From an uncultured candidate division Zixibacteria bacterium (GTDB taxonomy: Bacteria; Zixibacteria; MSB-5A5; UBA10806), in the NCBI GenBank assembly GCA_963817915.1, contig CAWFQL010000007.1, forward strand, positions 1-61,148: a stretch of 61,148 nt of DNA, read 5' to 3'. Shown one piece after another: positions 13,566 through 16,827 of the stretch (the first letter of the stretch is position 1; each line of letters opens with the position of its first letter). The position numbers were made by a program, and so were the translations under genes. The notes below the pieces were generated by a model. The model was not told the origin of the DNA. It saw nothing but the letters and a program-made list of their open reading frames with translations, and did no database searches.

Positions 13566-13707
13566 TCAGCATTCCTCCTTCTTCTCATCATCAAATAAGA
13601 CCATTCAAATATAGGAACTGTATTTCCGCTTGGCAACTGAATTATCGTTTGAATGTAATACATTAATTATAAAGCAATAATGATTCTTGATAAAGAAACC
13701 TGATATT

Positions 13708-13736
13708 AAAAAAGGCGCCGCATTGGATGCGACGCC
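13708..13736 (-). terminator. intrinsic terminator of the 31-aa gene
   Basis: Minus strand GGCGTCGCAT-cca-ATGCGGCGCC-TTTTTT. Confidence 0.8.
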
Positions 13737-13762
13737 ATCATATTAAATCCTGAACTACCGAT

Positions 13763-13858
13763 TTAGTGCTTGGTAGTGCGTTTGCGAGTCTTGTTCCAGC
13801 TAGTGGACTTCTTTGTTGTCCTGTAGCTTTTCTTTGTGCGAGATGTCTTCTTTTGCAT
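13763..13858 (-). CDS. 31-aa highly basic microprotein MQKKTSRTKKSYRTTKKSTSWNKTRKRTTKH (not in the ORF track)
   Basis: TAAGGAGG RBS 4 nt before the ATG, an open frame to TAA and its own terminator. Confidence 0.75.
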   Translation of the reverse strand: MQKKTSRTKKSYRTTKKSTSWNKTRKRTTKH

Positions 13859-13972
13859 GCTTCCTCCTTAGTATTTTGAAGCTATTATTTTATCGTCCAT
13901 ATAAATACTTTATAAACTTGCCTAGTAATTTTTCCCAACGTTATCGAAACCGGTTTTTCAAAATTGAACAAT

Positions 13973-13997
13973 AAAAAAAAGGGCCTTTGGGGCCCTT
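13973..13997 (-). terminator. intrinsic terminator of the 33-aa gene
   Basis: Minus strand AAGGGCC-ccaaa-GGCCC followed by a run of T. Confidence 0.8.
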
Positions 13998-14019
13998 ATT
14001 TTAAATTCGCGAAGCTATT

Positions 14020-14121
14020 TTAGTGCTTGTGCGAATAGCAGTATTTGGAGCGACCCCAAGTGGAGTTTTTGCAACGCTTGTTGTCTTTCGTCCATCCTGC
14101 GCAACGTGTTTTCTGTGCCAT
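14020..14121 (-). CDS. 33-aa basic CCCH zinc-finger-like microprotein MAQKTRCAGWTKDNKRCKNSTWGRSKYCYSHKH (not in the ORF track)
   Basis: AAGGAGG RBS 5 nt before the ATG, a C-x9-C-x10-C-x2-H pattern and its own terminator. Confidence 0.8.
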   Translation of the reverse strand: MAQKTRCAGWTKDNKRCKNSTWGRSKYCYSHKH

Positions 14122-14325
14122 TAAATCCTCCTTTTAAGGTGTAATCATTATTATCTATCGGGTCTATCATATCTATATTCACTTTCAATTCGAGAACGTT
14201 CAATGCCTGTGTTTATTTTTGTAACGAGGATTTTAATACGAGAAACGAGGTCAGGCCGACCATAAGCATCATTGAATAAAGCAATGTCGCTTTAATATGA
14301 TATGAAATTTGAAATGGAGAAATTT

Positions 14326-15450: not shown

Positions 15451-16827
15451 ATGATTGACTCTCACGCCCACTTGGATTTCTCCCAATTTGATTCGGATCG
15501 AAACATAGTTATTCATAAAGCATTCGAGAGTGGGATCAAAGCCATAGTCAATATTGGTACCGATTTGGCGACTTCGATAAGCACTGTCGAATTGGCGTCA
15601 CGATACGAAAATATTTATGCGTCAATAGGAGTCCATCCTCATGATTCTCAAAATTGCCCCAATGATTATATCCAACAAATCGAAAAAATGGCCGCTGAAG
15701 CCGCCGGAAAGAAGATTGTGGCAATCGGCGAAATCGGCCTGGATTACTATCGCGACCTCTCCCCCCGCGATATTCAGAGAAAGGTTTTTCGAGAGCAGAT
15801 CGATCTGGCATTGAAATTGAAATTACCGATAGTAGCGCATATTAGAGAGGCTATGGACGATGCCCTTAAGATATTGGAGGAATCGGGCATCAAGCGAGGC
15901 GTGCTGCACTCATTCCCCGGAAATATCGATGAAGCGGCTCAGGCAATTAATATGGGATTTCATATTTCATTTGCGGGTCCAATAACATATCCGAAGTCGA
16001 CAAGGGCGTCAGTTGCCGCCTCGATACCACTTTCGAGAATTTTGACAGAAACCGATTGCCCTTATCTTTCCCCACAGGTTTCGAGAGGTAAGCGAAACAG
16101 CCCTGATAATGTCAGATTTGTAGTTGAAAAATTGGCCGAACTATTTTCGCCTTATACATTCGATGATATAGACCGTATCACATCTTTGAACGCTCAAAAG
16201 CTCTTTGGCTTTTCACTCGAAGCTGTTCCCAAAATTATCTATAAGATTCGCAGATCGCTATATATCAATCTTACCAATCGATGCAGTTGCAATTGCTATT
16301 TTTGCCCGAGAATCGGCAAGGGACGCGGATATGTCGCCGGACATTATCTTCTATTGAAAAAAGAGCCGACTATAAAAGAGGTGCTTGATGCCATTAAAAA
16401 TGAGCATGATTTCAATGAAGTTGTCTTTTGCGGGCTGGGAGAACCTACGATAAGATTAGCAGAAATGCTTGAGATTGCGTCGAAATTAAAAAAGGCCGGG
16501 CACTTCGTGAGATTAGACACCAACGGTCATGGAAGTCTTATAAATAAAATCGATATCGTTCCTAAATTAAAGGGATTAATAGACAAAGTTTCGGTTAGCC
16601 TTAATGCCGCCGACGCGGATACCTATATAAAACTGAATAAGCCGGATCGCGGAGAAGAAGCTTACCATGCATTGCTGAAATTCATAAAGGATTGTGTCGC
16701 AAACGGCATCTCGGCTGACGCTTCGGTAGTAGAATTACCGCAGGTCAATCTCGATGATTGCAGGAAATTGGCCGGCCAGCTTGGTGCCGGATTCAGGATA
16801 AGGAAATATTCGAAAGGTGATAATTAG
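15451..16827 (+). CDS. TatD-family hydrolase fused to a TatD-associated radical SAM domain
   Basis: DSHAH, GVHPH, GEIGLDY and ETDCPYL, then LYINLTNRCSCNCYFCPR (CxxxCxxC) and VVFCGLGEPT. Confidence 0.93.
   Translation: MIDSHAHLDFSQFDSDRNIVIHKAFESGIKAIVNIGTDLATSISTVELASRYENIYASIGVHPHDSQNCPNDYIQQIEKMAAEAAGKKIVAIGEIGLDYYRDLSPRDIQRKVFREQIDLALKLKLPIVAHIREAMDDALKILEESGIKRGVLHSFPGNIDEAAQAINMGFHISFAGPITYPKSTRASVAASIPLSRILTETDCPYLSPQVSRGKRNSPDNVRFVVEKLAELFSPYTFDDIDRITSLNAQKLFGFSLEAVPKIIYKIRRSLYINLTNRCSCNCYFCPRIGKGRGYVAGHYLLLKKEPTIKEVLDAIKNEHDFNEVVFCGLGEPTIRLAEMLEIASKLKKAGHFVRLDTNGHGSLINKIDIVPKLKGLIDKVSVSLNAADADTYIKLNKPDRGEEAYHALLKFIKDCVANGISADASVVELPQVNLDDCRKLAGQLGAGFRIRKYSKGDN

Follow-up and report, generated by a model that had tools for sequence, protein, structure and literature searches.

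A conserved 33-residue Cys3His microprotein gene and a probably translated polycationic orphan frame beside it in an uncultured Zixibacteria bacterium

The DNA analysed here, referred to throughout as the window, is a stretch of 61,148 nucleotides (positions 1 to 61,148 of contig CAWFQL010000007.1, NCBI GenBank assembly GCA_963817915.1) from an uncultured candidate division Zixibacteria bacterium, and carries on its minus strand two adjacent, co-oriented and very short open reading frames, ORF1 and ORF2, with highly basic products (Table 1). Both frames had been singled out in an initial annotation made from the letters of the sequence, and were found exactly as quoted there, at 33 and 31 residues. 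The same annotation had given each frame its own AAGGAGG ribosome-binding site (RBS) and its own terminator, which reading of the RBS and a terminator scan confirmed: the AAGGAGG motif lies 4–5 nt upstream of the ATG in ORF1 and ORF2 alike, a G+C hairpin with a T-run lies after each stop codon (13997–13979 for ORF1 and 13736–13714 for ORF2), and four terminator-like sites occur in the 1.1-kb region, against 0.9 expected from shuffled sequences. The translations likewise bear out the residue patterns first described, as ORF1 has cysteines at positions 7, 17, and 28 and a histidine at position 31, giving C-x9-C-x10-C-x2-H, while ORF2 is composed largely of lysine (9), arginine (4), threonine (8), and serine (4) among its 31 residues and is free of cysteine, of acidic residues, and, after Met1, of aliphatic residues, with very few hydrophobic ones of any kind. 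The last 10–11 bases of the two frames are identical, so that both end in Lys-His-stop, as had also been noticed. No Rfam family and no tRNA called by ARAGORN was found in the window.

Table 1. Features of the two small transcription units and of the DNA upstream of them (positions in the window).
Feature	Position	Strand	Basis or remark
ORF1: 33-aa basic C-x9-C-x10-C-x2-H microprotein, putative stand-alone DUF5763-like module	14020..14121	minus	ORF translation
ORF1 RBS, AAGGAGGA	14126..14133	minus	AAGGAGG, invariant in 15/15 aligned loci
ORF1 intrinsic terminator: 7-bp G+C stem, loop, T8	13971..13997	minus	terminator scan
ORF2: 31-aa K/T/S/R-rich orphan peptide, Cys-free, acid-free	13763..13858	minus	ORF translation
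ORF2 RBS, TAAGGAGG	13863..13870	minus	unchanged in the ~91%-identical relative X4
ORF2 intrinsic terminator: 10-pair stem, T-run	13708..13736	minus	terminator scan
Weak sigma-70-like promoter candidate for ORF2: TTTATA-18-TAAAAT, 9/12	13887..13916	minus	consensus match only
Weak sigma-70-like promoter candidate for ORF1: TAGATA-17-AATAAT, 9/12	14147..14175	minus	consensus match only
Conserved upstream block CCGATA...TGA, promoter or operator candidate	14141..14162	minus	CCGATA invariant in 15/15 loci
Second conserved block CGTTwCAA...rAC, near-palindromic	14210..14226	minus	alignments of ORF1 loci

The explanation that we favour, with somewhat better than even confidence, is that the locus contains two small genes, each monocistronic and independent of the other but differing in standing, of which ORF1 would encode a zinc knuckle and ORF2 a lineage-specific, disordered polycation. 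The design of the units carries part of this argument. The source genome was scanned whole (3.33 Mb in 22 contigs, 44.8% G+C), with the reversed genome serving as the control, and AGGAGG followed after 3–9 nt by an ATG and a frame of 20–60 codons was found 25 times in the real genome and 28 times in the control. A Shine-Dalgarno (SD) sequence before a short frame is thus as frequent in reversed DNA, and that design alone means nothing. When a terminator within 80 nt was required in addition, five cases remained in the real genome and none in the control, and two of the five are ORF1 and ORF2.

ORF1 is a genuine conserved gene under purifying selection. A six-frame search of 40 related genomes recovered orthologues that are open over their full length and 70–78% identical to ORF1, with expectation values (E) of 6.7e-14 to 2.6e-12, in 10 of the 13 genomes of the same family, and weaker, paralogue-like matches in further genomes, 29 of 41 genomes giving a match at E≤1. 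At E≤1e-4, a profile of 15 homologues detected the family in 131 of the phylum's 285 genomes, for the most part as open frames of 35–140 codons. Fifteen loci (the window, ten genomes, and four metagenome contigs) could be aligned, and over their 31 gap-free codons the ratio of nonsynonymous to synonymous substitution rates (dN/dS, Nei-Gojobori), taken for the 84 of 105 pairs in which dS is unsaturated, is 0.09 at the median and reaches at most 0.30. A hairpin followed by a T-run was read by eye after the ORF1 stop codon in all 15 of these loci. Across 30 aligned sequences of the family, C7, T11, C17, C28, and H31 are invariant, and K12 is conserved too. At shorter range, a metagenome contig of sequencing run X4, about 91% identical to the window, differs from it at 2 of the 102 nt of ORF1 and at 23 of 176 flanking nt, and the two differences within the frame are one synonymous change and one T21A replacement. 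The exact sequences of the two window frames and of ten ORF1 orthologues are absent from a collection of 15 billion proteins (0 of 12 present), consistent with the description of the pair as unannotated.

Two blocks of conserved DNA precede ORF1 in the aligned loci, CCGATA...TGA about 40 nt before the RBS and CGTTwCAA...rAC about 110 nt before the ATG. Both are conserved across at least five genera, and the second is kept in the window although the kinase gene that lies upstream in relatives is missing there. In a weight matrix for the CCGATA block, derived from the orthologues, the ORF1 site scores 10.8 and only 20 positions in the genome are as good. An element of the form CGATA...AATAAT had been proposed as common to both units, but the corresponding site upstream of ORF2 is at background, with 18125 genome positions as good, and this part of the initial annotation is not confirmed. 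A search for consensus RNA structure in the 5' region of ORF1 returned none (0 predicted pairs), making promoter or operator DNA the more likely nature of the blocks. Neither block matches a clear sigma-70 promoter, and the weak sigma-70-like candidate of ORF1 listed in Table 1, which overlaps the CCGATA block, is not conserved as such among the orthologues; the blocks may instead be the site of some regulator or of an alternative sigma factor. In one orthologous locus, L011, a 12-nt tandem duplication (GATCACACTAA twice) lies between the CCGATA block and the RBS, which indicates that the spacing between the two tolerates a change in length.

The initial annotation had suggested a comparison with small CCCH families such as DUF5763 (Pfam PF19067), an uncharacterised Cys3His module of about 30 residues that often occurs in tandem repeats, and this comparison proved apt. 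Sub-threshold DUF5763 matches were obtained for 11 of 15 ORF1 homologues in Pfam, along with weak and scattered matches to WRC, zf-TRM13_CCCH, zf-C3Hc3H, and zf-primase. The profile of 15 homologues, run against 1.84 billion representative proteins, retrieved 502 of them at E≤1e-3 (26 of these at E≤1e-10), mostly with 2–8 matched stretches each, and 38 of its top 60 matches pass Pfam's own cut-off for DUF5763. Among the best 150 family proteins, 149 contain C-x9-C-x8-12-C-x2-H, the x10 spacing occurs in 319 of their 362 modules, 123 have at least two modules, and 15 are single-module proteins of no more than 80 residues, several with Lys/Ala-rich tails. The reciprocal profile link and the passing of the DUF5763 cut-off by most of the top matches lead to the view that ORF1 is a free-standing, divergent module of the DUF5763 type, the microprotein form, scoring below threshold, of a module already catalogued but uncharacterised. 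ORF1 shares with DUF5763 the same C-x9-C-x10-C-x2-H spacing and the threonine and lysine that follow the first cysteine, but differs from the typical members, which have 2–8 copies and often a hydrophobic N-terminus or a fusion to a nuclease, DnaJ, or peptidase, in being a single module of 33 residues. In the literature library that was searched, neither 'DUF5763' nor 'PF19067' occurs in any paper.

The partner domains found in the top 60 matches include Endonuclease_NS (4), GIY-YIG, HNH_5, T5orf172/MUG113, DnaJ (4), a caspase-like peptidase, and M48. Four of the matched proteins (P0016, P0017, P0021, and P0029) are secreted-looking DNA/RNA non-specific endonucleases with two DUF5763-type modules, and at least one of these two-module endonucleases bears a C-terminal basic adaptor motif of the PBCV type. 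This architecture hints that the module may tether the enzyme to nucleic acid. A second DUF5763-like module is present in the source genome itself, at the C-terminus of a 189-residue protein with a hydrophobic N-terminal segment (contig C3, locus L039, 1510–2079, minus strand), but goes undetected by Pfam at E≤0.001. A sub-threshold NCBIfam match of ORF1 to the N-terminal region of GvpO (17.1 bits against a cut-off of 52) was rejected, being read as a shared Cys3His motif and not as membership. PHROGs gave only a weak stretch of terminase small subunit for ORF1 (E=0.012), and all leads for ORF1 in a protein atlas stayed below 0.9.

The structure of the ORF1 product was modelled with AlphaFold2 (AF2) from the alignment of 30 sequences, giving a mean predicted local distance difference test (pLDDT) score of 84.8 and short hairpin-like strands followed by a C-terminal helix. 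Among structures in the Protein Data Bank (PDB), Foldseek matched this model best to the CCCH finger in the internal domain of MCM10 (3ebe_A; TMq 0.73, root-mean-square deviation 1.3 Å over 29 columns), a match that at E=5.1 is not significant. The MCM10 finger is reported to contribute to binding of single-stranded and double-stranded DNA without sequence preference (PMC5333062). The likeness to this finger (zf-primase, PF09329; PDB 3ebe and 3h15) would lie in the weak fold match and in recurrent weak profile matches within the family, where single-module homologues score 14.6–15.0 bits against the zf-primase cut-off of 28.8; in MCM10, which is a large protein, the finger acts jointly with an OB-fold.

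A second analogue is the WRC domain of plant GRF transcription factors (PF08879), in which the ligand spacing CX9CX10CX2H is identical to that of ORF1 and is likewise set in a basic context. Each WRC domain is reported to take up one Zn(II) and to bind double-stranded DNA, and its folding into a hairpin and a helix is zinc-dependent and proceeds without a hydrophobic core (bioRxiv 10.1101/2025.01.03.631214); in the AF2 model, the predicted order of elements in ORF1 is that of WRC. The differences are that ORF1 has K-R-C and not W-R-C at the second cysteine, lacks the QLQ partner domain, and is bacterial and free-standing. In Pfam, ORF1 itself gave no match to WRC at E≤10, the best single-module homologue reached 16.1 bits, and some multi-copy proteins of the family exceed the cut-off of 28.6 (for example 45.1 bits). 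The relation to WRC is best regarded as one of functional analogy, possibly of distant homology, and not of membership.

Because of the analogies to WRC and MCM10, the nuclease fusions, and the basic tails, our best inference is that ORF1 encodes a zinc-folded, nucleic-acid-binding knuckle. Expressed from its own conserved promoter or operator region and with a very strong RBS, the polycationic protein would constitute one Cys3His zinc knuckle (C7, C17, C28, and H31), in which a single Zn(II) ion would fold the peptide into a β-hairpin and a short helix. Its lysine and arginine surface may then bind DNA or RNA without strong sequence specificity, and the protein may act as a small nucleoid- or RNA-associated factor. 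Several results pull the other way. ORF1 itself scores 9.5 bits (E=0.9) against DUF5763, for which the cut-off is 26.3, and among the single-module homologues tested the best reached 20.5 bits and none attained the cut-off. A hydrophobic N-terminus, suggesting export, is present in 67 of the best 150 family proteins, and such apparently exported multi-copy relatives caution against confining the module to nucleic acid of the cytoplasm. The fold matches are statistically weak, as is clear from the Foldseek value given above and from the VIA wide search, which is independent of Foldseek and yielded as its best match an unrelated zinc finger (Z of 2.0), and a sequence search of the PDB with ORF1 returned no match among solved structures.

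A class of zinc-finger genes of about 33–35 residues that is conserved, strongly selected, and apparently highly expressed thus has matches in nearly half of the genomes of the phylum, and its members are absent from public protein sets (as in the search for 12 exact sequences). The family is a widespread, overlooked, and easily testable one, and its proteins could be plentiful in uncultured sediment bacteria, serving there as nucleoid- or RNA-associated factors.

The neighbourhood of ORF1 has been rearranged in the window. Comparison of the window with loci L003–L012, L026, L027, L030, and L033–L036 shows that the gene order in relatives of the same family is an HD-domain protein, an 810-residue GAF/histidine kinase, the zinc-finger ORF, a PD40-repeat protein of about 345 residues, and a GNAT acetyltransferase of 240 residues. 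In the window (13566–14325), the kinase and PD40 genes are missing, and ORF2 stands in the place of the PD40 gene, which implies that the locus was rearranged. No close orthologue of the kinase or PD40-like genes was found in the source genome, and no remnant of them in the intergenic DNA. A basic ORF beside ORF1 is absent in all 14 other loci examined, and the four loci returned by a pattern search of metagenome contigs for ORF1 contain no ORF2-like neighbour.

Whether ORF2 is a gene at all must be asked separately. Among the 13 same-family genomes nothing matched ORF2 at E≤1, and the 40 relatives gave only chance-level matches; in 284 other genomes of the phylum no relative was found, the sole match at E≤0.05 having E=0.0498 and an internal stop; and a wobble-degenerate ORF2 pattern had no matches in metagenome contigs. 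A genome search at the level of the genus returned only the source genome itself. No family in Pfam, NCBIfam, or PHROGs matches ORF2, the protein atlas has no match to it, and its language-model recognition value of 1226 lies in the range of shuffled sequences. The lack of relatives and of family matches and the low recognition value, together with the narrow base of the coding evidence (one relative of about 91% identity and four substitution events), count against ORF2 as a second gene, and they fit an alternative in which ORF2 is non-coding, a chance open frame within DNA that is decaying or non-coding, such as a small RNA or what is left of a duplicated unit, and its conservation reflects a short divergence time. 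That short frames behind AGGAGG are no rarer in the reversed genome suits this alternative as well, as does the folding of the transcript, which is somewhat better than that of shuffled sequences (z = -2.83), mostly by way of the terminator.

The comparison with X4 argues the opposite. One X4 contig covers 13730–13904 and differs from the window at 15 of these 175 nt. Of these differences, 6 fall within ORF2 (96 nt), none in the 12 nt of SD and spacer, and 9 in the remaining 67 nt, so that divergence in the frame is roughly half that of the flanks. Three of the changes, at 13814, 13817, and 13847, fall on the third base of threonine or lysine codons and are all synonymous in ORF2, and the fourth event, at 13853–13855, turns codon 2 from glutamine to threonine; read in the antisense frame, the three single substitutions hit first codon positions and are non-synonymous, with Cys to Gly among the changes. 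X4 keeps the frame, SD, ATG, and stop codon of ORF2 despite changes immediately outside them, at the three bases 5' of the SD (13871–13873) and, beyond the stop codon, at two of the first five bases. Together with the excess over the control of designs that include a terminator, this suggests that ORF2 is probably a translated frame, kept intact in a close relative, and we consider the non-coding alternative fairly improbable. The product is probably disordered, as AF2 predicts no secondary structure for it (predicted template modelling score, pTM, of 0.15), and a polycation with 13 lysines and arginines and 12 serines and threonines among 31 residues probably also contacts nucleic acid electrostatically. 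The check originally proposed, frame conservation in relatives combined with dN/dS, came out in favour of ORF1, whereas for ORF2 no relatives were found beyond the single contig of about 91% identity.

The position of ORF2 also allows it to be read as a Thr/Lys-rich regulatory leader peptide that controls the terminator at 13714–13736 and read-through into the GNAT gene. Such a role would accord with the strong terminator 27 nt after ORF2, with the co-oriented gene that follows, and with the 8 threonines and 9 lysines of the peptide. Between that terminator and the start of the GNAT gene, however, lies a promoter belonging to the gene itself (TTGCCx-17/18-TATATT), which is also kept in three orthologous loci without ORF2, and ORF2 is thus not the leader of the gene. 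X4, moreover, conserves the peptide and replaces the terminator region, where 81 nt (13649–13729) give way to 80 unlike letters, the reverse of what an attenuator predicts, and the predicted fold offers no conspicuous antiterminator pairing as an alternative. This reading is very improbable.

The initial annotation had interpreted the two frames as paralogues, a zinc-binding and a zinc-free member comparable to the C+/C- pairs of ribosomal proteins. On this model ORF2 would have arisen in this lineage by tandem duplication of the ORF1 unit. The units are indeed adjacent, co-oriented, and of the same design, they share their terminal bases, and ORF2 occupies the rearranged place of another gene. 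When the two coding sequences are aligned globally as DNA under lenient settings, no more than 9 of 5000 base shuffles and 19–30 of 5000 codon shuffles score as well; the result is robust to five scoring schemes, and is specific to the ORF1 of the window (score 13, against -9 to 0 for the 14 orthologues); the 3' untranslated regions align to a degree reached by 130 of 5000 shuffles with the hairpin and by 270 of 5000 before it. The DNA signal, however, lies mostly in the last three codons, for without these and the stop codon 320 of 5000 shuffles reach the global score, and a local DNA alignment recovers only the shared terminal 10 nt (139 of 2000 shuffles as good). The 60-nt 5' regions align no better than 566 of 5000 shuffles. 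These tests were also chosen after the data had been seen, and the SD and terminator signals common to both units inflate the flank scores.

At the protein level no signal was obtained, as the local alignment score of the two products is reached by 2611 and the global one by 340 of 5000 shuffles, and across all six frames of the DNA around ORF2 the profile of the ORF1 family scores at best -0.5 bits. With the 14 orthologous ORF1 loci made into a DNA profile, nothing was found in the second unit even with all filters off, and the first unit, as positive control, was recovered at E=1.2e-31. ORF2 retains none of the four metal ligands and none of the invariant residues. The proposed common upstream motif is, as described above, at background there, and the genome shows no enrichment of an AT-rich palindrome that lies upstream of ORF2 (12 matches at no more than two mismatches, against 27 in the control, plus strand only); no zinc-regulator site was identified, no such motif being available for this phylum. 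In C+/C- pairs, both members come from ribosomal protein families and their homology is plain over the full length. ORF1 and ORF2 resemble them in being one small basic protein with cysteines and one without, encoded by one genome and in this case adjacent, but show no homology at the profile level, and neither matches a ribosomal-protein model in Pfam or NCBIfam at E≤10. The idea of a zinc-binding and a zinc-free paralogue is attractive, but these tests do not support it.

Because the DNA signal is modest, concentrated at the 3' end, and post hoc, and because protein and profile signals are absent, we rate an origin of ORF2 by duplication of the ORF1 unit as unlikely or, at most, a tentative possibility. 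That the two further form a functional pair, one zinc-dependent and one zinc-independent, we consider unlikely. The same low standing is given to a variant in which the ORF1 unit was duplicated in this lineage and frame-breaking indels then converted the copy into a Cys-free, disordered polycation that came under purifying selection, possibly as a zinc-independent counterpart; were it true, a zinc finger would have been caught in the act of giving rise to a new microprotein. ORF2, if confirmed by further genomes, would be a very young disordered polycationic microprotein, perhaps a gene born through duplication followed by decay of the frame.

Two further observations were made in passing. At 15451–16827 of the window, on the plus strand, a single ORF of 458 residues fuses a complete TatD-type DNase/hydrolase domain (residues 2–253) to a radical-SAM domain (272–421). 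Elsewhere in the source genome, a 20-codon ORF with a Lys/Pro/Glu-rich tail end is present in three copies, two of them identical (C16:452497–452559, C20:5789–5851, and C21:3643–3705), each with an AGGAGG and two with the same terminator; these may be a repeated element or another family of small basic peptides.

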